Shown here: in pieces, positions 30,773-63,984 of the stretch
Layout of the letters: every line of letters starts with the position of its first letter
How positions within the stretch are numbered: the stretch's first letter is position 1
NCBI GenBank assembly: GCA_035352635.1
Contig: DAOPYA010000004.1
Span: 3,733 to 67,732 of the forward strand
Reading direction: 5' to 3'
Length of the DNA: 64,000 bases
Source of the DNA: Candidatus Rifleibacterium sp.
Lineage (GTDB): Bacteria > Muiribacteriota > Ozemobacteria > Ozemobacterales > Ozemobacteraceae
Position numbers and translations under genes: made by a program
The notes under the pieces: model-generated
Told to the model about the DNA's origin: nothing
The model's input: the letters and a program-made list of their open reading frames with translations, nothing else
Database searches by the model: none

Positions 30773-30799
30773 AGAAATCAAATAATCTGGAGGCAATTT

Positions 30800-40027: not shown

Positions 40028-41479
40028 GTGACCATGGTTCAGACCGATTTTCTCAAGGCAGTTTCTCTTTTTTCAGAGCTTTCAGATGATGAACTTCGCA
40101 ATGTCAGCCAGCAGGCTGAAGTCGTTAACTTTGTTCGCGATGCCTTTATCTGCAAAGAAGGGCAGCAGGCTGATTCTATGTTTATCATCAAATCCGGCAT
40201 CGTTCAGATTTTCTGTGACGATGGCAAAAGTGGCCGCAAAATTCTGACCCATCTTAAGCTGGGCGAATATTTTGGAGAAATGGCTCTGCTCACCGAAGAA
40301 CCGCGAACTGCCTCGGCGGTAGCGCTTGCTGAAACTGAAGTAATCAGACTGAAAAAAGACAGTTTTCACAATCTGCTCAAAACAACTCCCGGTGTCTCTT
40401 TGAGCATCATCAGAACCCTCTGCAATCGCCTGTCAAAAACCAACATTGGCTCGGCGCAAACGAAGATGCACAATGTCTATGCGGTTCTTGGCCCCGACAC
40501 TGCCTCAGGCAAAAGCCTTTTTGCCCGCAACCTGGCAATGGCGATGCAGAAGGAACTTGGCTGCGACGTTTTTCTTTATGACCCGAACCTGCGCGACGAC
40601 CGGGTCGCCAGAAGCCTTGGCGTTGAACAGCATTCGCGAATAATTGACGAACTTCTCGACCGCGAAAAGATTACCGACCTGAAAAAATATGTAGTTAAAA
40701 CCGCTTGCGGTCTGCTGACCTTATTGCCACAAGAAAACGGTCTAACCGATGTGCGCCTGAAGGAATTTCATACCTTTTCACTGATGCAATCAGTAATGGA
40801 ACATTACGAATATGTAGTAGTCGATTCAAGCTCGATGTTCACCAAGGTTACCAAAGAAATTGTGCAGAATTGTGACAAAATTGTCTATCTCATTTCGAGC
40901 AAAAACGTTTCAATTGCCGGTCTTATGGATCATTTCGACGAAACGCGACGCGGCTGGAAAGTGGCGCCTGAAAAAATAGTTTTCGGGGTAAACCACATGA
41001 CCGATGATCGCACCCAGGAAAGCCTGATCACCGAGAAAGACCATGAGCGCATCAGCTTCGAAATCCCATTCAGCAAAGAACTAAAAGGCAAAAGAGATCC
41101 CGAGCACGAGTTGCTGATTCAAAAAGATCCCGGTCACCCGATGAGCAAGATCTGCAGCCAGCAATCTCTGAAGATTCTCTTCGATCAGACCATAGGGCTG
41201 TTTCTGCCAACTTTTGATGATGAACCGGCCAGGGCTGGTCTGGCAAAACGCTGGCTCGAAAGCGGCGTTGCCGAGTTTTCCCAGACCCTCAAAAAAGTTG
41301 AAGTTCTTGGCCCGGTTACCCGCCAGGGCAGACTTTATCATATTCTCACCGGTCATACCTCAAAGTGGAGCCTGAACGAGCAGGTCGTAAAAATTGTTGA
41401 TTTTTCGAACCGCTTTAAAAAGGAATTCGATGTCAGCAGCCTGATTCTCTCGCTGAACACCCAGGAAAGCATCATCTGA
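40028..41479 (+). CDS. Cyclic-nucleotide-binding domain fused to a degenerate MinD/ParA-like domain
   Basis: N-terminal 130 aa is a Crp-type cNMP-binding fold (GEYFGEMALLTEEPRTASAVA). Residues from about 150 align to MinD: YAVLGPDTASGKSLFARNLAMAM; LLTLLPQENG; YEYVVVDSSS; CDKIVYLISSKNVSI. The P-loop is non-canonical (GPDTASGKS). Confidence 0.6.
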   Translation: MTMVQTDFLKAVSLFSELSDDELRNVSQQAEVVNFVRDAFICKEGQQADSMFIIKSGIVQIFCDDGKSGRKILTHLKLGEYFGEMALLTEEPRTASAVALAETEVIRLKKDSFHNLLKTTPGVSLSIIRTLCNRLSKTNIGSAQTKMHNVYAVLGPDTASGKSLFARNLAMAMQKELGCDVFLYDPNLRDDRVARSLGVEQHSRIIDELLDREKITDLKKYVVKTACGLLTLLPQENGLTDVRLKEFHTFSLMQSVMEHYEYVVVDSSSMFTKVTKEIVQNCDKIVYLISSKNVSIAGLMDHFDETRRGWKVAPEKIVFGVNHMTDDRTQESLITEKDHERISFEIPFSKELKGKRDPEHELLIQKDPGHPMSKICSQQSLKILFDQTIGLFLPTFDDEPARAGLAKRWLESGVAEFSQTLKKVEVLGPVTRQGRLYHILTGHTSKWSLNEQVVKIVDFSNRFKKEFDVSSLILSLNTQESII

Positions 41480-48990: not shown

Positions 48991-49638
48991 TCAAATCTGG
49001 CTGAAAATGAGCCTTTCATTGGTCATGCAACTAATGACCAGCTCTCGGCGGCAGGCCAGCGAAATTGATTCAGCAACATACTTAGCCTCTGAAGGGTTTA
49101 TTGAGGCAAATAATTTCTCAACCACGAATCCGTGGCTTTGCCTGACATAAACCTTAACCACCCAGAGACTGGTGCTCTTGGCAAACAAGCACTCTGAATC
49201 ACGTGTCAGTTCAACGTTAGTTATGTCATCAAAATGGTAAACGGTGATTCTGGCCCCAAGAAAACTGGTTTCATCAAGTCGAATCACCTTTTGCATGCGA
49301 TCAAGCGATACCGATTTGCCATAAGTCACCAGAATCAACCCGGCCAGCAAAAACCCGCCGGCGACCATCAGGCAGAACAGGCAAAAGGCAAAAAGGGTAA
49401 AAAACAGTTTGCCCGCCAGGAGTTTATAGAGAATACTGCTGCCAGCAATGATGAACCCAATGCCCAGCACCGAACAGGCGCGGGTGGTTCTGAAGGTAAC
49501 TATGTCCTGATCAAGGTCGCGAACATTCATCACCTTAAAACTGCTCAATAATCCCATCTCTTGAATTCCCTGAACGACATAATTGGTAGTTTTTTTTAGG
49601 ATGTTGCCGATAATAGCAAATGTAGCGGGCATGGTCAA
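48991..49638 (-). CDS. Hypothetical membrane protein (215 aa)
   Basis: Two central TM helices (ILYKLLAGKLFFTLFAFCLFCLMVAGGFLLAGLILV) with soluble flanks. No motif recognised. Confidence 0.45.
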   Translation of the reverse strand: MTMPATFAIIGNILKKTTNYVVQGIQEMGLLSSFKVMNVRDLDQDIVTFRTTRACSVLGIGFIIAGSSILYKLLAGKLFFTLFAFCLFCLMVAGGFLLAGLILVTYGKSVSLDRMQKVIRLDETSFLGARITVYHFDDITNVELTRDSECLFAKSTSLWVVKVYVRQSHGFVVEKLFASINPSEAKYVAESISLACRRELVISCMTNERLIFSQI

Positions 49639-49861: not shown

Positions 49862-50356
49862 TCAGACTGTACCTCGCAAAAACTCAATCAGATCCTGCTC
49901 GTCAAGCACCTTAAAACCATTGTCAAGCAGCAGACGGGCCGTAACCCCGGAGCCAACAATAAGTTTGCCCGAAAAAGTGCCGTCATAAACCGATTTTAGG
50001 CCACACGAAGGGCTGCGAGTTTTCAGAACCACCAGCTCAACGGCAAAAAGTCTGGCCAGACGCAAGACTTCGCCTGCGCCCCTGATAAAACAATCAGTCA
50101 CATCGCGGCCGTCTTTGGCCAGCACCCGCCCCCGGCCGGCCAGAACTTCTTTGGCCGACGACACAAGCTCTGATGGAATGCGCGGTGTCGGCATGCCGCC
50201 GAGTTGTTCTGGGCACACTGGCACCAGTTCAAAATCTTGCTGTAATAACAACGGCCCCTGCAGAAAATCTGCTGAGGCCGTTGCTTTATAACTACACTGT
50301 ATACCTAGAAGACAGGCGCTGATCATCAGGCGCCGTGGTTTCTCGGAACGGTTCAC
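49862..50356 (-). CDS. DUF523-family protein (TudS-like Cys-rich small protein)
   Basis: CLLGIQCSYKA and VCPEQLGGMPTPR motifs are characteristic of DUF523. 164 aa. It overlaps the platform gene by 4 nt. Confidence 0.5.
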   Translation of the reverse strand: MNRSEKPRRLMISACLLGIQCSYKATASADFLQGPLLLQQDFELVPVCPEQLGGMPTPRIPSELVSSAKEVLAGRGRVLAKDGRDVTDCFIRGAGEVLRLARLFAVELVVLKTRSPSCGLKSVYDGTFSGKLIVGSGVTARLLLDNGFKVLDEQDLIEFLRGTV

Positions 50357-52086
50357 TGGTTGTCGAGAGGAACAACCGGCAAAGGCGCCGAAGTCGAAGC
50401 AATAGTCTGAACCGGAGACTCACCAGTCTTTATAATCTGCAGAGGCTGCTGGCCGGTTGTCTTGCCGGCAGGAGCAACCAGCAGCGATGCGCCGGCTGGT
50501 TTGCCCGCTGGCTTTTTACCAAGCATACCTTCCTGGAGGTTCGCGTTGCCCGGCCGAACTTCTTTCGAAGCCGAAATTTTGGGCATATTTTCGCTGACCT
50601 GCAGAATCGCCGGCCCAATAAGAATGACTGAAATACTTGGGAAAATAAAGAAAACCAACGGAATCAGAAGCTTAACCGGAAGCTTGTTAACCCGTTCTTC
50701 GGCTAGAATCATTCGCTGATAACGCATCTGCTCAGCCTGGGCACGCAAAGTCGGCCCAATTTCGGCGCCAAGGCGCTGTGCCTGAATCAACGAACTTACA
50801 AACGAGAAAAAAGACAGCACCCTGACCCGTTCAGCCATATCGGCAAGCGCCTCTTCAAGGCTTTTGCCAACCTTGGTGTCAGCGATGAACATCTTGAATT
50901 CAACCACGATATCAGTATTTCTTGACTTCTCAACAACCTTGGCGATGCCACCGGTGAGATCAAGGCCTGATTCGATGGCAAGAGAAAGCAGATCGATAAC
51001 ATAGGGCAGTTCAAACTCAATGTTTTTCTGGCGCTTTTTGATCAGGTGAGCCAGATAGATTCTCGGCAGACGATAGCCGATCGGAATCATCATTATCAGT
51101 GCAATCCAGCCAACAATTCCGATAAAAATCGGGTTGACAAACAGGGCAACCAGCACTGCAAAAAACAAAGCTGACAGCTGCATAATCGCCATATATTCTT
51201 CGGGCGTGAACTCAATCGCCTTGTTAGAAGCTTCAAGCAGGAATTTAACCTCGCTTTTCTGCTTCGCCAGCCAACCGGAGGGCAGAATCTGGTCAAAGGC
51301 CACTACCGGTTTAAGCAGAACGCGCAGCAACTGCCAGCGCTCGCGAGCCTTGGCCCGGGCTTCATTCTTCATGATTACGGCTTCTTCTGCATCTGGAAGA
51401 ATAGAAGTGGTCATACGGTTGATAATCATCATCCCGATAAGGGACATCGAAATCGTTGCAATCAGAACGATCTGACCATAAGGATTTTCGAGCATCGGCA
51501 ACAGGTATTTCGGATCAAAGATGATTACAACTGCTGAAAGAAAAATTGGAATAGAGCCAACAAGATTGCCCGACAACCTTGCATGAGCGGTTCCGGCAAC
51601 TACCTTGCCCATGATCTTCTTGCGTTCGGCAACCGTCAGAACGATCTGGCGATAAAGATCTTCGAGGTTACCACCGGTTTCCTGCTGAAAAATAGTAGCA
51701 TTGACAGCAAGGCGGAGATCCTGGCTCGGCACCCGGCTGACCAGGTTGCTGAGCGCTTCAACCATCGGAACACCAAGTCTGCGTTCTTGAACCAGGGTTC
51801 TAAATTCGTTACAGATCGGCGGCGGTGTCGAAACAGCGACCAGTTCAAATGCCTGGTCAAGGTTTCGACCGGCTTTCAAGCTTGAACTGATCATCAACAA
51901 TACTTCGATGAGCTGATCTTCAAGGCTGGCGCCGGTTATGCTTTGCAGATACTTTGAACGCCCACCGGGGGTGTCTTTGCCCTTGTTTGGATCAATACTT
52001 AGATCCATTTGTTCTTCGAGGAAAAAGTAAACCCCGATTATTACCCCCAGAACTGCCAATATCTTGATTGCGGGAATTATCATCAT
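50353..52086 (-). CDS. Fused TadB-TadC-like (double GspF-domain) pilus/secretion platform protein
   Basis: 577 aa with two T2SS-F-type domains, each with about 3 TM helices and the cytoplasmic helical repeat. It lies immediately downstream of the CpaF-like ATPase gene. Confidence 0.7.
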   Translation of the reverse strand: MMIIPAIKILAVLGVIIGVYFFLEEQMDLSIDPNKGKDTPGGRSKYLQSITGASLEDQLIEVLLMISSSLKAGRNLDQAFELVAVSTPPPICNEFRTLVQERRLGVPMVEALSNLVSRVPSQDLRLAVNATIFQQETGGNLEDLYRQIVLTVAERKKIMGKVVAGTAHARLSGNLVGSIPIFLSAVVIIFDPKYLLPMLENPYGQIVLIATISMSLIGMMIINRMTTSILPDAEEAVIMKNEARAKARERWQLLRVLLKPVVAFDQILPSGWLAKQKSEVKFLLEASNKAIEFTPEEYMAIMQLSALFFAVLVALFVNPIFIGIVGWIALIMMIPIGYRLPRIYLAHLIKKRQKNIEFELPYVIDLLSLAIESGLDLTGGIAKVVEKSRNTDIVVEFKMFIADTKVGKSLEEALADMAERVRVLSFFSFVSSLIQAQRLGAEIGPTLRAQAEQMRYQRMILAEERVNKLPVKLLIPLVFFIFPSISVILIGPAILQVSENMPKISASKEVRPGNANLQEGMLGKKPAGKPAGASLLVAPAGKTTGQQPLQIIKTGESPVQTIASTSAPLPVVPLDNQ

Positions 52087-52089
52087 GAC

Positions 52090-54213
52090 TTATCTTTCCT
52101 CCTCAGCTTTTGAGACCGCCAGTGTTTCCTTGAACAGGTGGGCGTTCTCTTCGAGAAAAGCCCCGGGTACTGCCTTCATAAAGTTTGGTAATACACCTGT
52201 GGGTACAATTTCTCCCACAACTTTACCCGCAGCGTCAATCCATTTTTTTTCAAACTTGAAAATTGTCTGCGTCTGAATGATATTTTCTTCCAGACCGCAA
52301 ATCTCAACTACTTCGAGCAAGCGACGACGACCATCGGCCAGACGACCGTTCTGCACCACGATATTAACCGAACTGGCGATCTGTTCGCGAATTGCCCGCA
52401 ACGGCAGATCTACACCCGCCATCAGCACCATGGTTTCGAGCCTGGCCAGAGCATCTCTTGGCGAATTGGCATGCAACGTGGTGAGAGAACCGTCATGACC
52501 GGTATTCATTGCCTGAAGCATATCTACAGCCTCTGCACCACGGCACTCACCGACAATAATACGATCTGGTCGCATTCTCAAAGCATTTCTCACCAGATCT
52601 CTTATGGTTATCTGGGTTTTCGCTTCGGTGCCCTGCTGGCGGGCCTCAAGACGCCCAAGGTTAAGCTGGGTAAGGCGCAATTCTGCTGAATCTTCGATAC
52701 AGATAACCCGTTCAGTAGGCAGAATATAGTTTGAAAGAACATTAAGCAAGGTGGTTTTTCCGGAACTGGCACCGCCGGAAACGACAATATTCTTTTTGAA
52801 ATGCACGCAAAGCCTGAGAAATTCTGCCACCGACGGCGTGATGCTTTTAAAGCGGTAAACCAGGTCTTCCATGGTTAACGGGATTTTAGAAAATTTGCGA
52901 ATAGTGATCATCGGCCCGGTCAAAGAAAGAGGCGGAATAATGGCATGCACGCGTGAACCATCAAGCAAACGGGCATCGACATAGGGGGTACGCTCGTTAA
53001 CCGTTCGCCCGGCCGGCATGAGAATCCTCTCGATAACGGTTTTAACGTGGTCAGCATTATTGAAACGTCTGTCGGTCAAAATCAGCCGGCCACCCTTTTC
53101 AACGAATATTCGGTCTGGGCCGTTAACCATAATCTCATCGATTTCGGCGTCGCGCATAAAGTCTTCAAGAGGACCAAGCCCGAGAATTTCATCGACAAGG
53201 TATTTTCTGATTTCAGAAACGGCGTTGTGCCCGGGTATGGCTGGCGGAGAACTGCGCCGCATTGCCTCGTCAATCTTGACTTCAACAACTTCACGCAACT
53301 CATGGTCCGAGATCCCAAAGCGTTTTTCAAGGTCGCCAACGATTTCCTGGCGTACCTTGCGCGAGTATTCGACAATATCTTCGGAAATGGTTTCGATTCT
53401 TTCTTCTTCGCTGCCCGGGTTGAAGCCAAGGGCCGGCCTGGCCATCAGCTTTTCGATCAGCTCAGTCAGACTGCTTTGCACTGGCTGGCTCAACCCTGAA
53501 TCAGAAACATCTTCGCTGAGCGGAAACGTCTGTTCAGGATCATAGAGAACACTCTCGACCGCCCCTTCTTCAACATGGTTTCTCACCCAGAGAAGTTTTT
53601 GCCGAAGGCCGTCATGGGCACAGACCTCGTCAAAGAACTTCTGGGCAAAAGACGGTGATGGCGGCTGCGACGAATAGACATACATAAGAACATCGGCACG
53701 AAAAAGCAGATGAAACGGCAGGGGCGACAGCTGAAACATTCCGTCAATGACAACGTAGCCTTGTAATTCTTCAAAAATCTTCAGCAGATGATTCAAAGAA
53801 TCGACCATATCATCTTCGCTTAGATGAAATCGAGGTTTAAGGGTTTCTTTTGGTCTGATGCCACAGAAAGGAATGTAATAAACACCATTGTGGCATGAAA
53901 AATATTTATTGAGCGTCTGGGCATTCAGTGCCGCCCAGTTGCCCATGTAGTATTCGAGGAGACTATTTTTGATGACAAACCCGTCAGAGAAGCTTTCAAC
54001 AATGCTTGAAGGCTTGAGAAAATTCAACTCAAGGTAGGCAACCGGCCGGCCGGTTTTTTTTTGCAGCTCACTGGCAAGGCCTGCAGCCACGAATGATTTT
54101 CCTATACCACCTTGAAAACTTGTAACCAAAAAAACGCGTGCTGTTTTTTGTTCTGTTTTCATTGCCCCTCTTTTCTTTGCCCAATTCAACCACAAATGCA
54201 TTTGAACTGTCAA
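52090..54213 (-). CDS. Tad/type II secretion family ATPase (CpaF/TadA-like) fused to an N-terminal MinD/CpaE-like domain
   Basis: C-terminal part: Walker A GGASSGKTTLLNVL, Asp box ICIEDSAEL, Walker B RPDRIIVGECRG, His box TTLHANS. N-terminal 230 aa align to MinD: ARVFLVTSFQGGIGKSFVAAGLA; YYIPFCGIRPKE; YVVIDGMF...ADVLMYVYS. The P-loop is deviant (Lys to Gln). Confidence 0.8.
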   Translation of the reverse strand: MTVQMHLWLNWAKKRGAMKTEQKTARVFLVTSFQGGIGKSFVAAGLASELQKKTGRPVAYLELNFLKPSSIVESFSDGFVIKNSLLEYYMGNWAALNAQTLNKYFSCHNGVYYIPFCGIRPKETLKPRFHLSEDDMVDSLNHLLKIFEELQGYVVIDGMFQLSPLPFHLLFRADVLMYVYSSQPPSPSFAQKFFDEVCAHDGLRQKLLWVRNHVEEGAVESVLYDPEQTFPLSEDVSDSGLSQPVQSSLTELIEKLMARPALGFNPGSEEERIETISEDIVEYSRKVRQEIVGDLEKRFGISDHELREVVEVKIDEAMRRSSPPAIPGHNAVSEIRKYLVDEILGLGPLEDFMRDAEIDEIMVNGPDRIFVEKGGRLILTDRRFNNADHVKTVIERILMPAGRTVNERTPYVDARLLDGSRVHAIIPPLSLTGPMITIRKFSKIPLTMEDLVYRFKSITPSVAEFLRLCVHFKKNIVVSGGASSGKTTLLNVLSNYILPTERVICIEDSAELRLTQLNLGRLEARQQGTEAKTQITIRDLVRNALRMRPDRIIVGECRGAEAVDMLQAMNTGHDGSLTTLHANSPRDALARLETMVLMAGVDLPLRAIREQIASSVNIVVQNGRLADGRRRLLEVVEICGLEENIIQTQTIFKFEKKWIDAAGKVVGEIVPTGVLPNFMKAVPGAFLEENAHLFKETLAVSKAEEER

Positions 54214-55136
54214 TCTGTTACAATTATGGCGAATTTATGTTATCAAGGAAAATCATGGAACCTTTTGCAATAAATGTCTGTGAATTAAAAAAACTCTATG
54301 GCACCCAGGAAGTAGTTAAATCAATCTCCTTCGCAGTCAACAAGGGTGAAGTTTTTGGTTTTCTCGGCCCGAACGGCGCCGGCAAAACCACCAGCATCCG
54401 TATGATCATCGGCGAAATACCAGCCTCAGCTGGAAAAATCGAAGTGCTCGGCAGAGCTGTACCAGCAGAACTGCCCGAAATCAAAAAACTCACAGGTATA
54501 GTACCAGACTACCAGAATCTTTACGACCGTTTGACGGTCAGACAAAACCTTGAATTCTTTGCAGCGCTTAACAATGTAACCCCTGACCAGATAGATATTG
54601 TTCTTGAAGAAGTTTTTCTTGCAGAACACCAGGGCAAAGCCTGCAAAGATCTGAGCCGGGGCCTGCGACAAAGGGCTCTCATTGCCCGCGGCCTGCTGCA
54701 CCGGCCCGAAGTTTTTTTTCTCGACGAACCCACCTCAGCCCTGGACCCTCACTCGGCCAAACTGATCAGAGAACTGGTTCTCAAGCTCAAATGCGCTGGC
54801 ACCACAGTATTTCTGACAACCCACTACATGGAAGAAGCCGATATGCTTTGTGACCGAATCGCAATCATGAACCGCGGCACCATTGTTGCCTGCGGCAGCC
54901 CCGAAAACCTGAAGAAGCAGTTCGGCCGCCGCTCAGCCCGGGTCGAAATACTGCGTGACAACAAACCCGAAACCCATGAATTTTCAATAGATGACCCCAG
55001 CCAAAAGGCCGAAATGGCATCTATGCTGAATTCTTCAACCATCCTGAGAATCCACACCCAGGAAGCCAAGCTCGAAGAAGTATTCATGCACGTGACTGGT
55101 GACGAATGGAAACCTGAAAGCGAGGATGCCAGATGA
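54138..55136 (+). CDS. ABC transporter ATP-binding protein
   Basis: Walker A GPNGAGKTT, signature LSRGLRQR, Walker B FFLDEPTSALD. The more likely start is the ATG at about 54255 (MEPFAINV). The track start is an upstream GTG that overlaps the divergent gene. Confidence 0.85.
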   Translation: MLFFVLFSLPLFSLPNSTTNAFELSICYNYGEFMLSRKIMEPFAINVCELKKLYGTQEVVKSISFAVNKGEVFGFLGPNGAGKTTSIRMIIGEIPASAGKIEVLGRAVPAELPEIKKLTGIVPDYQNLYDRLTVRQNLEFFAALNNVTPDQIDIVLEEVFLAEHQGKACKDLSRGLRQRALIARGLLHRPEVFFLDEPTSALDPHSAKLIRELVLKLKCAGTTVFLTTHYMEEADMLCDRIAIMNRGTIVACGSPENLKKQFGRRSARVEILRDNKPETHEFSIDDPSQKAEMASMLNSSTILRIHTQEAKLEEVFMHVTGDEWKPESEDAR

Positions 55137-56215
55137 ATATCCCCGCGATTCGCGCCATTTTTCGCAAAGACCTGCTCGACGGCGTAAGAAATTATCACGT
55201 CATCCTCATGGTGCTCACACCGATCATCCTGTCCCTGCTCTTCAGCAACATGGTTTCAGACAGCAAATCCGCAGCGGCTATGCCCGAGATCGGCATGATT
55301 ACCAGCCCACAACAGCCGATGATTGAAAGACTTACCAGTAAAGGCCTTGGCAAAAAAATCACCTTTTTCCAGAATCGCGACCAGCTCGAAACGGCAATCC
55401 TGCAAGGTGACGTGCGCTTCGGCATCATTCTGCCAGAATTAATTACTACCAAAACTACTTTTAAGAAATCCCAGTCAGTCGTCATTCTCTACCCGCCGCA
55501 CATGCCAGAATTCGGCATCGATACCCTAAAAAGCGTATTCGAAGCAGAGATAAGACACCAGCTGAATCTTGAACCCCCTGCCCTGCCCTTCGAACTCAAA
55601 GCCGAAGCAGTAGCCGGCGCGACCGGAAACGCCACCAATGTCTCTGACAGCATGTTTCCAATGCTGATTGTTATGGCCCTGGGCATGGTAGGATTTCTGG
55701 CACTGCCGATGGCAATCGTTGAAGAGCGCGAAAAAGGCACTCTGAACGCGATTTTTCTCACATCAATAACTCCGGGCGAGTTCATTCTCGGCAAATCCCT
55801 GTTCAGTTTTTTTCTGGCGATGCTGACTATAATTGTAATGCTGACCATCAATGGCAAATGGGGAAACAACTACCATTACCTGCTGCTGATTTCGGTGCTT
55901 GGCGCCATGATGACAATCTTCACCGGCCTGATCATCGCCAATTTTGCCCAGACTCAGGGTTCAGTCAACGCCATCGGCACAACCCTGTTTCTTTTCTTTC
56001 AGATGATCCCGAGCCTTGAACATACCAGCGAAATGGCAAGAAGGGTCGCGCCATTTTTCCCTTCAACCTATATTTTTGCAGGTCTGCGTAAAGCCATGTT
56101 TCTTGACCTAACGAGAGTCAGTATTCGTGACGATATAAACATAGTATTGGCAATTACCATGACCGTTTATCTGGCTGCCTGGATGGTTTACAAGCTCAAA
56201 AAAGCTGATAAATAA
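55133..56215 (+). CDS. ABC-2 type transporter permease
   Basis: 360 aa with one N-terminal TM, a large extracytoplasmic loop and 5 C-terminal TM helices. Its start overlaps the ATPase stop (ATGA). Confidence 0.6.
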   Translation: MNIPAIRAIFRKDLLDGVRNYHVILMVLTPIILSLLFSNMVSDSKSAAAMPEIGMITSPQQPMIERLTSKGLGKKITFFQNRDQLETAILQGDVRFGIILPELITTKTTFKKSQSVVILYPPHMPEFGIDTLKSVFEAEIRHQLNLEPPALPFELKAEAVAGATGNATNVSDSMFPMLIVMALGMVGFLALPMAIVEEREKGTLNAIFLTSITPGEFILGKSLFSFFLAMLTIIVMLTINGKWGNNYHYLLLISVLGAMMTIFTGLIIANFAQTQGSVNAIGTTLFLFFQMIPSLEHTSEMARRVAPFFPSTYIFAGLRKAMFLDLTRVSIRDDINIVLAITMTVYLAAWMVYKLKKADK

Positions 56216-56281: not shown

Positions 56282-57847
56282 TTGAAATACCTGGCATTCG
56301 ATGACATAGTAAGAAATCTGCTTGTCTTTTTAAAAGGGCAGGTGCCGGCACTCAGCGCCAAAGAGAGCCGCGAAGAAGTTCTTAAACAGATTCAGAGTAT
56401 GACCTTCACTCTGCGATCAACGATTGTTCAGCTTGAAGGCGCGGCATTTCACGACCCGCGCAACACAGAAGATTACCAGAACCTCGACAAAGAACTTCAG
56501 GCAATCAAACAGACCAACGCCAAACTTGAAGAGTCTCTGTTCCTTGAAATGAATAAGACCGCTGAACTCCGCGAAAAAGAAAGCGAGTTCAACCGACTTT
56601 TTGAATCAGAAAAACTCAGGTCGCTGAGCCATGAAAAAACCATCGCCGCGCTCCGCGAAGAACTTGAAAAGATTAAAAACCTGCCCCCAAGTGCAACGCC
56701 CGCTGAAAAATTCATCGACAACGAAGCCATAGATGAATTCAAGGCTGAGATTTCCCGCCTCGAAATCGCCCTCGCCAGGGCCAACGAAACCAGCCAACAC
56801 CTGAAACAAGTGCTCCAGAACAAAGACATCGAGCTGACGCGCAGCAAAGAAGCCCTGATGGAAGCGATGAATCTCGACAAATCCGAGATTTCCACTCTCA
56901 AAGGCCAGCTTAATAACGTTGAGCTGATGAAAAACGAAAATTCCGGCCTGAAAAAGAAAATAGCCGAACTTGAAAAAGAACTCTCTGTGCTTCCTTCCAG
57001 CGAAGTTTTTCGCAACAACATCGCCGCCGCCGATGCCAAAATTAAATTTCTCGAAGCCGCGTTGCAAAACTCCCAGACCGAACTGAAAACCCTGCGCGAG
57101 AACCAGCTGGCAACAGCTCCAGACGCCATAATTCGCGACAAAGAACAGCTCGAACAACGCGTTATCGATCTTGAAGCTACCCTGAAAAGCGTCATCAAAT
57201 CAAGAGACACCCACTCCGGCAAAGTGAACGACAAGTTTGCTTTCTCCCCCGAAGAATGTGTTTTTCTTTTTGAAACCCTTTCAACCACGGCAAACCGACT
57301 GGCCAGCAGTCTTGAAAATCGTGACGTGTTTATGCGCTCCAAAGAGTCGATCAGCATACTCGAAAAATCCAACGCCATTCAGAAGGTCTTCACCGTCGGG
57401 CAACTTTTCGACGGCAAAATTCACAAGGCCGCCCGATCATTCAAGAGTGATTTTCTGCCTGACGGCATAATCATTCACGAAGAATCGCCAGGGTTCGTAT
57501 CGGCAAACCGTCTGGTTCAAAAGGCCATGGTCTGGGTAGCAAAATCACTCTTTACCTGCGGCGAATGCAACAGTACCTGCCGGCCCCACGAGTATTTCTG
57601 CCCCAAATGCGGCCTTGAATTGACCGCCCCCGACGGCACCAGCAAACGCGAACTCCCTCCATACCCTGCAAAAATAGACATTAATATTCCGCTGCTCGAT
57701 GAATTAATAAAACAGGGTAATCTAAAAGCTGCTAACGCCTTATCAATGCTTATTTCCCGCGAAAACCCCGGGCACCAGGAATTACAAAAGCGACAAAACC
57801 TTCTGCAACGTGCCGAGAATCCGCTTGGGCCGGCAGGTGAATCATGA
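56282..57847 (+). CDS. Coiled-coil protein with a C-terminal Cys4 zinc ribbon
   Basis: About 300 aa of heptad-rich sequence (LKKKIAELEKELSVL...). C-terminus: CGECNSTCRPHEYFCPKCGLEL. Confidence 0.55.
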   Translation: MKYLAFDDIVRNLLVFLKGQVPALSAKESREEVLKQIQSMTFTLRSTIVQLEGAAFHDPRNTEDYQNLDKELQAIKQTNAKLEESLFLEMNKTAELREKESEFNRLFESEKLRSLSHEKTIAALREELEKIKNLPPSATPAEKFIDNEAIDEFKAEISRLEIALARANETSQHLKQVLQNKDIELTRSKEALMEAMNLDKSEISTLKGQLNNVELMKNENSGLKKKIAELEKELSVLPSSEVFRNNIAAADAKIKFLEAALQNSQTELKTLRENQLATAPDAIIRDKEQLEQRVIDLEATLKSVIKSRDTHSGKVNDKFAFSPEECVFLFETLSTTANRLASSLENRDVFMRSKESISILEKSNAIQKVFTVGQLFDGKIHKAARSFKSDFLPDGIIIHEESPGFVSANRLVQKAMVWVAKSLFTCGECNSTCRPHEYFCPKCGLELTAPDGTSKRELPPYPAKIDINIPLLDELIKQGNLKAANALSMLISRENPGHQELQKRQNLLQRAENPLGPAGES

Positions 57848-58078: not shown

Positions 58079-61000
58079 TCAGGGTCTGTAATCGAAAAGC
58101 CACAAATCTAAGGCCTGCTGGCCATTCTGCAGATTGAAGACCGTCGTTGTTTCGCCGGTTGAAGTCTTCACAATACCGCGCACCCCATCGGCGGCCAGGC
58201 TGATAGTTTGCTCTGAGCGTGCCTCGACCGGAACAAAACCAGGCAATGTTATACTATTATGAGTTCCGGAAAGGTTCAGGCCCGAAAACCCGTAATCAGA
58301 AGCATTGTCTGAAGAATATCGATTCAGATAGAGGCTGAGTGCCCAACGAGCCAAGGTCAGTTCAAAAGCCTCACCGGTAACGGCTACCACGTTTGCCTTC
58401 CCCGTCAGGCTGCTGTCAACAAGTTTGCGGGTAACATCGCGGTAAGTTGTTCCGAATCTGTTTTCCTGGGCCAGAAAACGCACAAACAAATACGACAGAC
58501 CGTAACTGTTAATGCCTGAAAAATTGGTCAGCGACAGATTTTTAAAGTTTTCCTGGCTAAGCTTGATAAGCGAAGCAGTATTGGCGTCGCCATTGAGAAT
58601 GCCGTAGCCGCAAACGTCTTCTGCGTATTTCGACATTCCTTCATTGAGCCAGACAGACTCGAAGGTGCCCGTGCCGCCCAGACGCTGCTTCTGATAATAA
58701 TTTACCATGTGCTGAAATTCATGAGCAATAGTACCAAACCTTGTTATGGTGCTGGTTAGAGAGTATTTCACATAAATCATTTTGCGTTCATTGCTCTCTC
58801 GCAGCTGTACCCCAGATTCATCACGGTTGTATAAATCAATACCGTAGAAAATACCGGCAATACCCTGGCTCATCGAATCAGTCAGCAAAATTGTCAGCCG
58901 CCCCTCGCCATCTGGCCCCATATCAGGCTCTTGACCAAAAACGTCATTAATGCGCGGCTTGATCAGTTCTTCAAAACGCAGCCTGAGATCAGCAATCAGC
59001 GAACTGGAAGGCGTGATTATAGCGTTATCGGCATAAATAATCACTTCGGAGCCAATCGCAACACAGCGTGCCGCGATGCGGTTCTGAGGGTACGGCGTAC
59101 TGGTAGCGACCTGCCCATAAACCGGAATAAAAAATTCTTCACTCTCACCCAGAGCTGCAGCCGCAACATTCTGCCGACGGGCCCGCAAGCTGTTTTTGCC
59201 TGGCAAAACCATAGATGGCAGTCTGGCGCTAACTTCGCTTTCAAAAAATCTGAAGGCAGAACGCGGGTCAACAGTCGCAGGAATGGACTGCCTCACGCTA
59301 CTGCGCACCGTGAAGGTTGCCGGTTCGGGCGAAGCCACTGCCACGGCAAAAGATTTTGCCCCGGCAATCAAACCCGGAACCGACAAAGCCAGACTCTCTG
59401 CTGCTGCCAGTCGAACCGGGAACGCCAGAGACCGGCAACCTGACGGCACCGGAATTACCGAGTTAACCGTGAAAGAATAGGCCGCCCCACGGCTCATAAT
59501 ATTGTTATTCAGGTCTTTGACCTGGTTGTCAGCTATGGTCAGTCTGTTGAAACTGCCCGGCAACCACGAGTTTCTTGGCCAGAACCTCAGAGTCGCAGCG
59601 TTATCCCATGACCAGGCGCCATTGACCGCTGGCACAAAGCTTAAAGCGGCCAGAGCTGAAGTTTTATCGACCGGTTCGCTGAATGTAACTACCAGAGGGT
59701 CTTCCACCGCAACGTTGATCGTTCCATTCACTGGAATTACCGACAATATGGTTGGCGGAGCAGTATCGTTCTCGCTGTCGGCAAGAATCGTGCATGAAAA
59801 AACCGCTGAAGAAGTGGTGTTTCCAGATGGGTCGCGGGCTATTACCTGCCAGTAATATTTTCGGCCGGCGAGCAGGTCAAGCTGAGGATTCCAGGTAGTT
59901 TCGGTCAAGTTTTCAGCAATTTTCACGGCAGGCGGCGCCATCGTATCGAGCAACAGGTCATAAAAAACCTTGGTGTCATCAGGGTCGCCACCGGCCCATG
60001 CGAATACCGGCCGCACCGGAACCCGGATACTGCCACTGGCCGGCGAAATCGCCAACGGCTGGTTGGGAGCCTGACTGGCAAGGGCTGCGGTCGAAAATGA
60101 CCATACCGGCGAATTGGGGTTGCTCAGGCCTCGGGCATCTTTTACTACTACCTGCCAATAATACAGGGCGCCCGGTCGCAAGGTTTCAGAGGGCAGATAA
60201 ACCTGCGCGGCTGTGCTTTCGACCACTCGTGGCAACGGAAAGCTGTTACCAAGGAAAACGGTGCTGGTAATTGAGTCCCCGTCGGGGTCTTGAGAAGACC
60301 AGCGCAACTGAGCGTTAACAGCGATACCCTCTGAACCGCTCGCCGGGTAGACAGCCACCGGATCAGCCGGAGCCTGATTATTCGGCGCATGCACCGTAAA
60401 TCGCCACACCGGGCCGGCAGTTTCCTTGCCACGATTATCGGCCGCCAGAATTTGCCAGTAATAGGTTTTGCCAAGCACAAGAGAATTCAGCTGCATGCTG
60501 GTTTGTCGGGTTTTAGACTCGAGCAGCAGAGTCTTCTGATCGGTACCCAGAAGAAAAGAATAGGTGATAATGTCATCAGCATCGGGGTCTCCACCGCTCC
60601 AGGTGCAGAGTGTCGCTGGCAGTTGATTTACAGATAAATCTTCGGGTACCGGCAAGGCCGGCTGATAAGGCGCAAAATTGCTTAAATCACCGGTCTTGAA
60701 CTGCCAGATCGGTGAAACAGTCACGGCTTCATAAATATCACGGCTTATTATTTGCCAGAAATAGACCTTATATGGCAACAGACCACTCACCTTAAAACCG
60801 CTTGCAGTTTGCCGGGTTGCCACCACCTTCATCTCACTGCCCTGCGCCGCGAATAACACATCAAAATTGATTGCATCGTTATCAGGGTCGCTGCCAGCCC
60901 AGCGCAGCACGATGCCATCGCTCTGGTTTTCGCTCAAATTGCCGGGAACCGGGTCATAAGCTGCCAGGGGTGGCCGATTGTGCGGGTTCACCCCGATAGA

Positions 61001-61948
61001 ACTGCCCTGCTCAACCACCAGGCGCAATACCGCCCGCCCCTCAGCCTGGTCGGCATCTTTGCCGGTCAGGGTTATATCAACGACCCCCGAGGCCGCCGGA
61101 GCCGTAAAAACAGTAGAGGCACCAGTCAGATTGGAAAATTTACCCAAGTCAGCTGACCAAAGCCAGCTGATCGCATCACCGTCTGCATCGACCCCGGAAG
61201 CGCTCAGACTGATGGGTTCATTTGTTTTAACCGAGATAGCCTGATGTTCAATTTCGACGAAAGGCGCTCGATTGCCAGAAGTCGAGGTGGTTGGTGTCAG
61301 CCTGACATAGAGGTGCGCCTGCTTCTTGTCACTGAATCCAGCCAGAAATGTTGCGGGAATATAGCCGATCGCCTCAACCCGGACTTCTTTACTTTGCAGA
61401 CCTCCGGGAAAAGGGCCAATATCAGCATTGCCATTCAGAGCGGGGAACGCGAACCCCCAGACTCTCACTTCGGCGTTAAGCAAAGCACCCGTATTGACAT
61501 CACTGACTGTAATTTTCAGGTTGTAGGGCGCGTGTTCGAGCACAATAGGCGCTGCAACTACCTGAGTTTCATAAGCACCAGTGAGATTCACCACATCAGA
61601 TCGCTGCCGGTATGGGGTGGTGCCTGAAACCTTGTGAGCCACAAGCCTGATCGGGCCGGCCGGTACATTGCGAATAATAAAATCACCGTTGGCATCAGCG
61701 TTGGCAAACAACTCGGGGCGGTCTTCGACAAATACCAGTGCACCTTCGGTCGACAGCAAAGAAAACGCGCCGCGAATCGAGCCAGGCGATGAGGGTGGCA
61801 GAACCTTGCCTTTAACGTTGGCAAAGACTTTGATGGTCGCGGGCTTCTGCCAGTCGGCAATACCGCCGTCAGTGCTGCCGCAGCCAATTGCCAGAAGCAG
61901 TGTCAACCCAAATAAAAATACGGCAAACCGGCTGCTGACAGAACGCAT
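58079..61948 (-). CDS. Giant surface lipoprotein: FN3-like repeats, Ig-like domain, C-terminal HExxH gluzincin metalloprotease domain
   Basis: Lipobox LLAIGC in the signal peptide. Four to five repeats of about 95 aa carrying (W/R)W(S/A)GxDPDxD and YYWQ(V/I) motifs (FN3-like). A Big-like segment VIPVNGTINVAVEDPLVVTFSEPV. C-terminal HEFQHMVNYY with a downstream WLNEGMSKYAED (Glu as third zinc ligand, thermolysin-like). Confidence 0.7.
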   Translation of the reverse strand: MRSVSSRFAVFLFGLTLLLAIGCGSTDGGIADWQKPATIKVFANVKGKVLPPSSPGSIRGAFSLLSTEGALVFVEDRPELFANADANGDFIIRNVPAGPIRLVAHKVSGTTPYRQRSDVVNLTGAYETQVVAAPIVLEHAPYNLKITVSDVNTGALLNAEVRVWGFAFPALNGNADIGPFPGGLQSKEVRVEAIGYIPATFLAGFSDKKQAHLYVRLTPTTSTSGNRAPFVEIEHQAISVKTNEPISLSASGVDADGDAISWLWSADLGKFSNLTGASTVFTAPAASGVVDITLTGKDADQAEGRAVLRLVVEQGSSIGVNPHNRPPLAAYDPVPGNLSENQSDGIVLRWAGSDPDNDAINFDVLFAAQGSEMKVVATRQTASGFKVSGLLPYKVYFWQIISRDIYEAVTVSPIWQFKTGDLSNFAPYQPALPVPEDLSVNQLPATLCTWSGGDPDADDIITYSFLLGTDQKTLLLESKTRQTSMQLNSLVLGKTYYWQILAADNRGKETAGPVWRFTVHAPNNQAPADPVAVYPASGSEGIAVNAQLRWSSQDPDGDSITSTVFLGNSFPLPRVVESTAAQVYLPSETLRPGALYYWQVVVKDARGLSNPNSPVWSFSTAALASQAPNQPLAISPASGSIRVPVRPVFAWAGGDPDDTKVFYDLLLDTMAPPAVKIAENLTETTWNPQLDLLAGRKYYWQVIARDPSGNTTSSAVFSCTILADSENDTAPPTILSVIPVNGTINVAVEDPLVVTFSEPVDKTSALAALSFVPAVNGAWSWDNAATLRFWPRNSWLPGSFNRLTIADNQVKDLNNNIMSRGAAYSFTVNSVIPVPSGCRSLAFPVRLAAAESLALSVPGLIAGAKSFAVAVASPEPATFTVRSSVRQSIPATVDPRSAFRFFESEVSARLPSMVLPGKNSLRARRQNVAAAALGESEEFFIPVYGQVATSTPYPQNRIAARCVAIGSEVIIYADNAIITPSSSLIADLRLRFEELIKPRINDVFGQEPDMGPDGEGRLTILLTDSMSQGIAGIFYGIDLYNRDESGVQLRESNERKMIYVKYSLTSTITRFGTIAHEFQHMVNYYQKQRLGGTGTFESVWLNEGMSKYAEDVCGYGILNGDANTASLIKLSQENFKNLSLTNFSGINSYGLSYLFVRFLAQENRFGTTYRDVTRKLVDSSLTGKANVVAVTGEAFELTLARWALSLYLNRYSSDNASDYGFSGLNLSGTHNSITLPGFVPVEARSEQTISLAADGVRGIVKTSTGETTTVFNLQNGQQALDLWLFDYRP

Positions 61949-61971
61949 GGCACCCCTTCCGAATAGACAGG

Positions 61972-63453
61972 TTAATTGGTAGCTTTAACCTTTTGAATCA
62001 ATTCAACATTATCTTCGGAAGTATCACGCATTTCTATTACATTCAATTTTGCCTTACCCTGACTTATCAGTGATTTTGCCGCATTATAAATACCGACATC
62101 ATCGGGTTCCTTGTTAAATTCACCCATCCAGCTGAGGTCTATTGAATCATAAGCACTCTTCAGTTCTGCTGTGCTGCGCGAACTACCCGAAGTGCCTGAA
62201 ATTGTGACCTGTTTTCCATCTTCGTCTTCGTAGGTCTTCGAACCTTCACCTTCGGCGGCACCGGTAACAATATCGATAACTTTTACCGGCTTGTCAGGAG
62301 GGGTTTTGCCGTCTTTTTCGGCTTGTTCGACCTGTACATTGTGGCTGCCTTCGATAGCGCGATCCTGGAGTTTCATTTCGTAGGCTTCTTTATAAAGATC
62401 TTTTTGAGCAGCAGACATTGAAGAATAGCCGGGCACAGACTTGCCAAGAAAAGATTCTTCCTTGTCTTTGGTGTATTCGCCAAGATTATCGAGAACTTTC
62501 TTAACGTCTGCCTGTGAGTCAGCTTTTTCGAGGTCTGAGCGCATGCCGCGCACCTTTTCACCTTCGTTGGTATCCCAGAAGGCAACTCCGTTCCAGAATT
62601 TGCTCCAGCCGCTTTCGCCGGTATCAGTATCATCGATGCTCTCGTTCATATCATCTATTGAATCTTTTGCCTGCTGTATGAGACCTTTCTGGGTTGATTC
62701 AAGGCCATTCAACTGGTCATCATTCAGGCTGCGCAATTGTTCTTCATTCATGGCGCCGCCTGGCCCGAAACTGGCATCCTGCGTGGCGTCTTTTTCAACG
62801 ATCTCGTCTTTATTGAGCTTGGCAAGATCAAAATTCGACATGAAATTCTTGTTGGTTTTTTTGTAATATTCGTCACGCATGACCACTGAAGTGCGCTCTA
62901 CATGATACATTTCATCGCGGGTACCGGTGATGATCTTGCGGCCGACAATATTGATATCCAGTTTTGCCTCGCGACCGGCGCGGAAATCTTCATCGGTCGA
63001 TTCGAGGTCACCGGCGCCAATACCTGCGGCATCAACCGACTTGGCGATCTGCATGCTTTCGACATGAACAGAAAGAATTTTGACATCGCTGGGGCTGGTG
63101 CGGGTCAATAACCCGTCGCTGAGACGATATTCAACCTTTTCGGTGGTATCCTGGGCTATTTTTCCGTCTTCGGTTTCTTTAAAACGCTCGAACCTGACGT
63201 TCAGAGAGGTGCCGTCGGCAGCCTGGCCGCCGGGGGCCTCAAAGGAACCTTCCCTGATCGACTTGAGGTCTTTCTGCAAACTGTTTGCAGCAGCACGCAA
63301 CTCGCTCTGCAAGGTCTGGCGGGTATTCGATCTGGCGATTTCCCGTTGGACTCGTATCCAGACGCCGTAAATTGCGGTAAGCAAAATTGTCGAAAGAAAA
63401 ATAGCGACCATAACCTCAGCCAGCGTAAAGCCCCGGTTTCTGTGACTTTTCAT
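61972..63453 (-). CDS. Large (493 aa) type IV pilin-like protein with a canonical prepilin leader
   Basis: MKSHRNRG|FTLAEVMVAIFLSTILLTAIYGV: Gly at -1, Phe+1, Glu+5, hydrophobic helix. A 460-aa Asp/Glu/Lys/Ser-rich C-terminal region follows. Confidence 0.55.
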   Translation of the reverse strand: MKSHRNRGFTLAEVMVAIFLSTILLTAIYGVWIRVQREIARSNTRQTLQSELRAAANSLQKDLKSIREGSFEAPGGQAADGTSLNVRFERFKETEDGKIAQDTTEKVEYRLSDGLLTRTSPSDVKILSVHVESMQIAKSVDAAGIGAGDLESTDEDFRAGREAKLDINIVGRKIITGTRDEMYHVERTSVVMRDEYYKKTNKNFMSNFDLAKLNKDEIVEKDATQDASFGPGGAMNEEQLRSLNDDQLNGLESTQKGLIQQAKDSIDDMNESIDDTDTGESGWSKFWNGVAFWDTNEGEKVRGMRSDLEKADSQADVKKVLDNLGEYTKDKEESFLGKSVPGYSSMSAAQKDLYKEAYEMKLQDRAIEGSHNVQVEQAEKDGKTPPDKPVKVIDIVTGAAEGEGSKTYEDEDGKQVTISGTSGSSRSTAELKSAYDSIDLSWMGEFNKEPDDVGIYNAAKSLISQGKAKLNVIEMRDTSEDNVELIQKVKATN

Positions 63454-63465
63454 GGCTCCCCTCCC

Positions 63466-63984
63466 TTAAATCGCCTCAGAGTTGTAATAGGCATTTCCGG
63501 CCCGTACCACCCGGAGTCCAAAACGTTCGTCTTCCTTTTTGCCCTTATCACGCCAGAAAATCTCAACCTCAAACCAGACTTCGACAATCTGGTCGAGATC
63601 ATTCTTTTTAGCTTTGAGAGTTGCTTTGCAGCCATAATCTTTCAACGAGTCCTTGCTTTCTTCAAAAAAGCTTTCGATGCTTTTGGCAGTTTCTTTATAA
63701 AACTGCGGATGCACATCAAAAGAATTACCACTTGCCAGATCGCTGTAGTGCTTCTGATAGACCTTAAAAGGAACATGCTTGCATTCTTCGATCAGTTCCT
63801 GGGCCAGGCGGGTGGCCTTGCCGTAGTGGCCGATCTTGGCAGTAGAAACCGACCCGAAATCAACCAGACGCAGAATCGGAATAAACGCGATTGCCAGAAT
63901 CGATGCAGATATAACGATTTCAAGAAGGGTCAAACCTCGTTTAAGCTTGGTTACCACGGTTAATATGCCCTCCAGGAAGCCCAT
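63466..63984 (-). CDS. Type IV pilin / pseudopilin-like protein (about 160 aa)
   Basis: ...KLKRG|LTLLEIVISASILAIAFIPIL is a canonical prepilin leader and N-terminal helix. The true start is probably downstream of the track start. The gene runs towards the window end. Confidence 0.5.
   Translation of the reverse strand: MGFLEGILTVVTKLKRGLTLLEIVISASILAIAFIPILRLVDFGSVSTAKIGHYGKATRLAQELIEECKHVPFKVYQKHYSDLASGNSFDVHPQFYKETAKSIESFFEESKDSLKDYGCKATLKAKKNDLDQIVEVWFEVEIFWRDKGKKEDERFGLRVVRAGNAYYNSEAI

Follow-up and report, generated by a model that had tools for sequence, protein, structure and literature searches.

Within a 64,000-nucleotide stretch of a Candidatus Rifleibacterium sp. contig (the whole of the DNA analysed, hereafter the window), two adjacent genes on the minus strand were found to encode four modules of the Tad pilus machinery on only two polypeptides. 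The upstream gene, tadZA (52090..54162), encodes a 690-amino-acid (aa) protein in which a TadZ-like ParA/MinD domain is fused to a CpaF/TadA secretion ATPase. The downstream gene, tadBC (50353..52086), encodes a fused inner-membrane platform of 577 aa, recognized from its open reading frame (ORF) and from two Pfam T2SSF stretches. On the strength of sequence matches and structural models, we consider it likely (a probability of about 80%) that these two genes specify the core, in the cytoplasm and inner membrane, of a Tad-class (type IVc) filament machine, with four proteins combined in two chains and with the partner components encoded elsewhere. An earlier note on this DNA had described the same two fused genes, a CpaE/MinD-like domain joined to CpaF and TadB joined to TadC in one polypeptide, and this description is borne out here by domain scans, a profile search of the PDB, structural models and collinearity with outgroup loci.

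The mechanical ORF of tadZA extends over 52090..54213 (707 aa) and opens at a TTG codon at 54213. The ATG at 54162, which is preceded by a GAGGGG Shine-Dalgarno sequence, was taken as the likely start, and the resulting 690-aa protein is 100% identical to the database protein P0001. The span of 50353-54213 given in the earlier note does contain both ORFs on the minus strand, although its upper end is the upstream TTG rather than the likely gene start. The tadBC start lies 3 nt past the tadZA stop, and in the relative L001 the two genes overlap by 4 nt; such an overlap in relatives indicates that tadZA and tadBC are translationally coupled. A scan for promoters and terminators returned no more sites than were found in shuffled sequence. 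The window matches contig CAZOMG010000001.1 of assembly GCA_964580875.1.

The ATPase core of TadZA occupies residues about 331-690 (52093..53172, minus strand) and was delimited from Pfam T2SSE, PDB matches to CpaF and conserved motifs. The T2SSE model (PF00437) aligns to residues 345-621 of the 707-aa ORF with an E value of 1.6e-55. When the core was searched against the PDB with phmmer, the Caulobacter CpaF structures 8rjf and 9e24 were matched over 342 residues at 351 bits (E = 1e-103), with lower scores for archaeal GspE (2oap, 134 bits), FlaI (120 bits) and VirB11 (102 bits). By these bit scores, the core is nearer to the CpaF/TadA clade than to the PilB/GspE, FlaI or VirB11 clades. The Walker A, Walker B, Asp and His boxes of secretion ATPases had been claimed for this protein, and all four were found intact on the minus strand: Walker A GGASSGKTT (residues 463-471 of the 690-aa protein, 52750-52776), the Asp box RVICIEDSAEL (residues 485-495, 52678-52710), Walker B RPDRIIVGECRG (residues 531-542, 52537-52572) and the His box MNTGHDGSLTTLHAN (residues 552-566, 52465-52509). 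The best NCBIfam match of the ATPase is the TadA-family model TIGR03819 at 300 bits, below the cutoff of 373 bits; this model describes another subfamily, associated with conjugal transfer. As judged from sequence, the last 360 aa of TadZA form a CpaF/TadA ATPase that retains every catalytic box.

The N-terminal domain of TadZA (residues about 1-240; 53443..54162, minus strand) was assigned from a PDB profile search, AlphaFold 2 (AF2) modelling and Foldseek. A profile built from 18 homologues retrieved from the PDB the ParA-family structure 3ea0 over the full domain (E = 3e-16) and the ATPase domain of 3fkq (E = 8e-7), a structure of TadZ (PMC10499894). The AF2 model of the domain, with a predicted local distance difference test score (pLDDT) of 82, exhibits the alternating strand-helix pattern of a P-loop NTPase, and Foldseek searches with this model place 3ea0 and 3fkq at the top, followed by FlhG, FleN, MinD and Soj. 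By the earlier note, domain scans that showed this region not to be ParA-like would refute its reading; the Pfam matches stay below threshold, and both the PDB profile and Foldseek indicate a ParA-like fold. The nearest standalone relatives are proteins of 380-400 aa with a receiver (Response_reg) plus ParA architecture, one of which is named CpaE. They come from a search with an alignment of the TadZ domain, whose 9 matches reveal CpaE-type kin and are too few for counts of fusions. TadZA itself contains no receiver (ARD) domain: the P-loop begins as early as residue 15, and no additional N-terminal domain is seen in the AF2 model. Thus, of the CpaE/MinD-like domain proposed earlier, the ParA-like fold stands and the CpaE-type receiver falls away.

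Two nucleotide-binding motifs are evident in this domain, the P-loop SFQGGIGKS (54094-54120, minus strand) and a Walker-B-like YVVIDG (53740-53757, minus strand). A P-loop of the form FQGGxGK[ST] occurs in 65 of the 77 full-length-sized matches examined, amounting to almost all Riflebacteria homologues. Gln occupies the position of the ParA/MinD signature Lys; the Lys and Ser/Thr of the P-loop are retained, as is the Asp of Walker B. Between this domain and the ATPase lies a linker/helical region (residues about 241-330; 53173..53442, minus strand), in which the AF2 model has a low-confidence stretch at residues 252-259 and then a helix, and in which the alignment of homologues is gapped and variable. 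The TadZ-like domain is the immediate upstream partner of tadA by in-frame N-terminal fusion. Taken together, the sequence matches and models indicate that the N-terminal 240 aa of TadZA is a TadZ-type ParA/MinD domain with an atypical P-loop and no receiver.

The platform protein TadBC was divided into three parts, all on the minus strand. The TadB-like half (residues 1-227; 51406..52086) consists of a first transmembrane (TM) helix, a T2SSF bundle at residues 65-188 and two further TM helices. The TadC-like half (residues 228-500; 50587..51405) consists of cytoplasmic helices, two TM helices, a T2SSF bundle at residues 364-490 and one TM helix. The C-terminal tail (residues about 501-577; 50356..50586) is of low complexity and rich in Pro, Gly, Ala and Lys. 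A Pfam scan for T2SSE and T2SSF, which the earlier note had suggested, recovered T2SSF (PF00482) in both halves, with 49.7 bits at residues 65-188 and 48.8 bits at residues 364-490 against a gathering cutoff of 25.2 bits, besides the T2SSE match of TadZA given above. Proteins named tadB by JGI align to platform residues 54-225 at 112 bits, versus 48 bits on the other half, and proteins named tadC by JGI align to residues 304-505. The identity between the two halves is only about 24%, and each half has its closest relatives, at 30-43% identity, among TadB or TadC proteins of a single domain.

The order of the two halves is also seen in outgroup loci. The closest TadZA proteins from beyond Riflebacteria are encoded in L004 (Acidobacteriota, protein P0110) and L005 (unassigned lineage, protein P0097), with 39% identity over 94-95% of the length. 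In both loci, the first gene downstream of tadZA aligns to platform residues 54-227 and the second to residues 228-500, so that the two alignments abut exactly at the junction; for the second gene of L004, its residues 20-289 align to platform residues 228-500. Together with the JGI-named proteins, this collinearity identifies the N-terminal half as TadB and the C-terminal half as TadC, in the order B then C. By these sequence comparisons, the platform protein carries TadB and then TadC on one chain.

Hydropathy and AF2 predict about six TM helices in TadBC, at residues 3-30, 171-190, 202-227, 295-316, 324-345 and 473-495. On the basis of hydropathy and the model of pLDDT 74, their layout differs by half, being 1+2 in the N-terminal half and 2+1 in the C-terminal half. 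The earlier note had assigned each half a three-TM GspF topology; about three TM helices per half are indeed predicted, but the parallel with GspF does not hold, since the classical three-TM reference is a whole GspF protein. Foldseek searches with the whole platform yielded only local matches, to the cytoplasmic T2SSF domains of EpsF, OutF, PilC and TcpE, without any solved homologue over the full length. When each half was searched by sequence against the PDB, no meaningful match to solved platform chains emerged, and an NCBIfam scan of the platform found no family at E <= 0.1. The tail, which has an AF2 pLDDT below 50, should be disordered and extracytoplasmic, its topology being predicted from the TM count and the positive-inside rule. 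Tail length varies among species (the whole protein is 509-777 aa), and is greatest in a clade with rumen, goat and reindeer metagenome-assembled genomes (MAGs).

Homologues of TadZA and TadBC were found almost exclusively in MAGs labelled Candidatus Riflebacteria, Rifleibacteriota or Ozemobacteraceae. The organism itself is a member of the candidate phylum Riflebacteria (Rifleibacteriota). A survey of GTDB species genomes located 39 loci, and in all 33 with enough DNA a TadZ+TadA ORF (690-770 aa) is followed by a TadB+TadC ORF (509-777 aa). Separate TadB and TadC polypeptides were thus not encountered: a single ORF encodes both in 33/33 informative Riflebacteria loci. The survey used the single pattern SFQGGIGK, is restricted to the Riflebacteria clade and is silent on TadZA fusions elsewhere. 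Relative to the nearest species (L011), the ratio of nonsynonymous to synonymous substitution rates (dN/dS) is 0.046 for tadZA and 0.045 for tadBC as whole genes, and within tadZA it is 0.09 for the TadZ domain, 0.03 for the linker and 0.02 for the ATPase core. Purifying selection on both genes is strong, and the fused form is kept throughout the phylum.

The earlier note had also stated that the window is devoid of an Flp pilin, a secretin and a prepilin peptidase, and Pfam, motif and small-ORF scans agree. A Pfam search of all large ORFs of the window detected no secretin, A24 peptidase or Flp, nor any match to RcpC, Tad or TadE/F/G. Motif and small-ORF scans of the window detected no Flp-like small ORF (G/xxxxEY motif), and the A24 prepilin peptidase motif GxGD[..]K, a crude test, was found neither in the window nor in any retrieved locus. 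In the 39 related loci, this crude motif and BLAST with a few reference proteins from L004, L005 and L009 revealed no substrate pilin, secretin, peptidase, TadE/F/G or RcpC in the surrounding 10 kb; TadE and DUF4244 likewise gave no BLAST match in the 39 loci. A literature search on pili of Riflebacteria or Ozemobacter found nothing relevant.

Several of these observations weigh against the assignment to a Tad-class machine. Neither the window nor the 10 kb around the related modules contains a substrate pilin, prepilin peptidase, secretin, RcpC or TadE/F/G, and with the partner genes not found near the module, a complete Tad system in Candidatus Rifleibacterium is not demonstrated. In addition, the Pfam CbiA and ParA matches of the N-terminal domain reach only 19-21 bits and fall under the gathering scores, its P-loop SFQGGIGKS departs from the TadZ-type Walker A consensus K/RGGxGx[S/T], and the AF2 model of the platform is moderately confident (pLDDT 74, predicted template modelling score 0.61).

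Other genes in the window do encode pilin-like proteins. The earlier note had placed larger prepilin-type genes about 25 kb upstream and 8 kb downstream, in agreement with the Pfam N_methyl ORFs found at 29199-29816, 61972-63453 and 63466-63984; additional pilin-like N-termini were observed at 26733 and 28805. One cluster of such genes, not annotated as such in the sources, lies at 58079-63984 on the minus strand and extends past the window end (L006 5916-9494). It encodes a 172-aa protein with a KRG|LTLLE leader, a 493-aa protein with an NRG|FTLAE leader and a Pfam N_methyl match, and a 1289-aa Big_5/fn3 Ig-domain surface protein, while beyond the window end it includes a 273-aa TM protein and a 913-aa protein whose N-terminus resembles that of GspK/PilX. 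A paralogous set, likewise pseudopilin-like, lies at 26733-29816 on the plus strand, with proteins of 691 aa ('TRRG|IALFLVVG'), 147 aa ('KAA|LSMVELLVAI') and 205 aa (Pfam N_methyl). Genes for a PP2C phosphatase, a 538-aa protein and a 712-aa TPR protein precede this set, and after it two small secreted proteins rich in Gly, Asn and Gln are encoded (30020-31261).

Three other explanations of the locus were weighed. One is that both fusions are artefacts of this one contig, through an assembly or frameshift error or stop-codon read-through; NCBI calls of 407-442-aa 'CpaF' proteins in some relatives (P0081, P0082 and P0084) would, taken literally, point to an unfused gene. However, the 407-aa call, in L008, reflects a wrongly placed start, and the uninterrupted ORF there also covers the TadZ-like domain. 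Both fused ORFs are moreover intact in 33 independent assemblies from different studies, and both are under the strong purifying selection described above, leaving practically no chance of an artefact. An unfused CpaF in some Riflebacteria was likewise rejected, as the ORF at L008 7029-9224 runs on upstream through the TadZ-like domain; the 'CpaF family protein' entries P0081 and P0082 may share the truncation of P0084 (L008), the one that was checked. A different proposal is that the 577-aa platform never underwent a secondary tadB-tadC fusion and instead retains the ancestral state, that of a two-domain platform like those of archaea or of the PilC/GspF type. The two-domain state is indeed held to be ancestral, with TadB and TadC derived from it by fission, TadC corresponding to the N-terminal domain and TadB to the C-terminal domain (PMC6668835). 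This same mapping speaks against retention: archaeal platforms would have the TadC-like domain first, and the B-to-C order seen here favours re-fusion if the mapping holds. The B-then-C order is also that of the adjacent genes in outgroup loci with a homologous TadZA, the nearest relatives of each half are the single-domain TadB or TadC proteins noted above, the ATPase is a derived bacterial CpaF, and other fused cases are scattered among unfused relatives. Retention is therefore highly improbable, and the fused platform would most likely have arisen through loss of the stop codon between neighbouring tadB and tadC genes.

A third possibility is that the Tad-type motor assembles, in place of Flp pilins, the nearby N-methyl pilin-like proteins, with the 1289-aa Ig-domain protein at the tip, into a secretin-less filament of mixed ancestry. 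The genes with G|F/LTLxE leaders at 61972-63984, the gene for the GspK/PilX-like 913-aa protein past the window and the second set at 26733-29816 are consistent with this, as is the lack of an Flp-like ORF in the window. The trio of 172-, 493- and 1289-aa proteins is encoded 4-10 kb from tadZA in about 18 of the 22 species loci with enough upstream DNA, and PilD-type peptidases can serve Tad pilins, as in Bdellovibrio (bioRxiv 10.64898/2026.07.08.737194). However, synteny extends over the entire region, with the genes for the M16 peptidase, SLH protein and ABC transporter included, and the closeness of the pilin-like genes to the motor is thus non-specific evidence. In Ozemobacter sibiricus and two other loci (L039, L043, L048), the trio was not found near the module. 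The trio is also separated from the motor by genes of opposite orientation, and the conventional partner of N-methyl pilins would be a PilB/PilC or GspE/GspF set elsewhere in the genome. We regard such a hybrid as unlikely. Slightly less probable still is its fullest form, in which Riflebacteria would have no Flp, TadV or RcpA at all and the two-protein motor would build N-methyl pseudopilins into a filament capped by a giant Ig-adhesin, all from genes of the conserved neighbourhood. If true, the type IV filament superfamily would gain a new hybrid subtype that has no secretin, with a re-fused, domain-permuted TadBC as its platform and a positioning ATPase inside the motor.

The genes surrounding the module are also conserved to a large extent. 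Directly downstream of tadBC lies a gene of the DUF523/2-thiouracil desulfurase family (49862..50356, minus strand; Pfam PF04463, E = 1.7e-39). It follows the platform gene in most Riflebacteria loci, was not detected there in the four closely related loci L014-L017, and is probably in the same operon as tadZA and tadBC. The DUF523 gene has no obvious tie to a pilus motor. Further downstream, a conserved 188-aa protein is encoded at 48991..49557 (minus strand), with its start set by alignment at Met28 of the mechanical ORF. It has two central TM helices and a conserved C-terminal domain and is present in nearly all of the 33 loci; a Pfam search gave no match. We considered and rejected this protein as a pilin or peptidase, given its two central TM helices and the lack of a class III leader and of a Pfam match.

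The genes flanking the module encode an SLH protein, an M16 peptidase and a divergent ABC-2 transporter. The ABC-2 transporter genes (ATPase plus permease; 54255-56215, plus strand) are the divergent neighbour of tadZA in most Riflebacteria, and ABC-2 components also adjoin the outgroup tadZA genes, with both ATPase and permease in L004 (9660-11863) and the permease only in L005 (4134-5429). This adjacency could be a coincidence or could reflect a functional link. Beside the transporter, in nearly all loci, is a gene for a 521-aa protein (56282-57847, plus strand) with a long coiled coil, a C-terminal stretch that is rich in Cys and resembles a zinc ribbon, and a weak GrpE-like match (E = 2e-5). 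Riflebacteria-type tadZA was also observed in contigs of L027, L036 and L037, and the flanking GrpE-like and ABC-transporter genes alone in L024; the titles of these four records read Erysipelotrichia bacterium, Candidatus Methylomirabilis sp. and Candidatus Avigastranaerophilus sp., and they are probably mislabelled or contaminated MAGs. Elsewhere in the window, two overlapping giant ORFs (14113-21632, plus strand) encode a 1196-aa protein with a sub-threshold N-terminal ParA/BcsQ-like P-loop and a 1310-aa protein with no Pfam match, and a 483-aa protein (40028-41479, plus strand) combines a cyclic-nucleotide-binding domain with a weak ParA-like AAA_31 match.

If tadZA and tadBC do encode the core of a Tad-class machine, as we favour, TadZA would be expected to form the usual hexameric motor, and TadBC to act as a covalent TadB-TadC heterodimer, three copies of which would provide a ring of six cytoplasmic T2SSF domains. 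A trimer of TadB/TadC heterodimers has been proposed by analogy with PulF, and a six-domain ring for PulF/PilC as well as for TadB/TadC (PMC10790770). The TadZA hexamer would then dock on three TadBC chains, and its ATP-driven motion would be relayed to the platform, resulting in insertion of pilins into a growing filament or in their extraction. Against the background of ParA/MinD proteins in general, Gln at the signature Lys position suggests nucleotide binding with poor dimer-dependent hydrolysis. With Lys/Ser of the P-loop and Asp of Walker B kept, the TadZ-like domain is likely to bind nucleotide but to turn it over little. The six copies of this domain, tethered to the motor, could serve as a positioning or assembly hub, as the TadZ part of the Bdellovibrio fusion does through RomR. 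Pilins, a prepilin peptidase and any outer-membrane conduit would have to come from other loci, and a shared PilD-type peptidase is plausible by analogy with Bdellovibrio.

Under this Tad-core interpretation, the Riflebacteria locus provides a minimal Tad motor, in which four core functions reside on two polypeptides in an arrangement stable across a whole candidate phylum. Stoichiometry would be fixed at 1:1 for both TadZ:TadA and TadB:TadC, which could ease reconstitution and structural work. The history of these platforms, with internal duplication and then fission to TadB and TadC (PMC6668835), gains a case of B-to-C re-fusion. For annotation, Riflebacteria proteins called 'CpaF' correspond to TadZA and those called 'T2SS F family' to TadBC, and some public calls truncate the TadZ domain. 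As both fusions have published precedents, no new mechanism is opened.

The closest precedent for the motor is the TadZA of Bdellovibrio bacteriovorus, a studied TadZ-TadA fusion that also has no ARD and whose TadZ-linker region interacts with the polar hub protein RomR; in that organism a PilD-type peptidase processes Flp and the tad genes are dispersed (bioRxiv 10.64898/2026.07.08.737194). In both Bdellovibrio and Riflebacteria, tadZA is directly followed by a platform gene (in Bdellovibrio, as a tadZA-tadB operon), and the two are also alike in their dispersed tad genes and in tad loci that have no TadV. Nevertheless, the Bdellovibrio fusion shares a main tad locus with Flp, RcpA and further tad genes, unlike that of Riflebacteria, and its TadB and TadC are separate, with TadC encoded elsewhere, whereas the two are fused in Riflebacteria. 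The Walker A motifs differ as well (K/RGGxGx[S/T] in Bdellovibrio versus QGGxGK[S/T] in Riflebacteria); the two fusions are likened here by description. In the outgroup loci L004 and L005, which are otherwise canonical Tad loci, tadB and tadC are separate genes of 284-301 aa rather than one, and these loci carry RcpC together with FHA or kinase regulators, as well as a secretin in L005 and a TadG-like protein in L004.

For the platform, a fused TadB-TadC ORF has been described in the tad-2 cluster of Micrococcus luteus (PMC4322843). A search of 1.84 billion representative proteins with the platform returned 23,787 matches. Past the Riflebacteria clusters, the best 150 of these 23,787 are almost all single-domain proteins of ~300 aa, and six longer clusters among the best 150 contain both halves in the B-to-C order (P0264, P0306, P0318, P0335, P0253 and P0245, the last with 46 members). 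One of the six lies in a canonical monoderm-type locus, L009, in which TadZ and TadA are separate and both a DUF4244 pilin and TadE are encoded. Like the Riflebacteria locus, tad-2 and L009 have one TadB-then-TadC ORF directly downstream of tadA. These are canonical monoderm-type loci in which TadA is separate, as is TadZ in L009, whereas the Riflebacteria ATPase is fused; pilin genes are adjacent in both (Flp in tad-2, DUF4244 plus TadE in L009) and are not near the Riflebacteria gene. The survey of CpaE-CpaF and TadB-TadC fusions that the earlier note had proposed therefore shows each to be rare but recurrent, and the architecture to be lineage-wide, in which case the note itself would no longer count it as new. 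The novelty it had implied is accordingly not sustained, with precedents for TadZA in Bdellovibrio and Acidobacteriota and for TadBC in M. luteus, and with the architecture universal in the lineage (39 loci).

Two-domain platforms offer a further comparison. PilC, GspF and PulF resemble TadBC in being one polypeptide with two T2SSF cytoplasmic bundles and an expected trimer of six cytoplasmic domains (PMC10790770), but TadBC has no detectable sequence match to solved platform chains, and its domains derive from TadB and TadC; compared with archaeal two-domain platforms, its domain order is permuted, going by PMC6668835. In canonical Tad/Cpa systems, a single locus also includes flp, tadV/cpaA, rcpA/cpaC, rcpC and tadDEFG (PMC6668835), none of which was found at the Riflebacteria locus. 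The canonical core (Aggregatibacter tadZABC; Caulobacter cpaE, cpaF, cpaG and cpaH) has the same four modules in the same order, Z, A, B, C, as four genes versus two in Riflebacteria, and canonical TadZ/CpaE has an N-terminal receiver-like domain that Riflebacteria TadZA does not. Thus, each fusion is rare, recurrent and already known, and the double-fused, detached form is modestly novel: the distinctive feature of Riflebacteria is the combination of both fusions, phylum-wide, in a pair of genes detached from those for pilin, peptidase and secretin.

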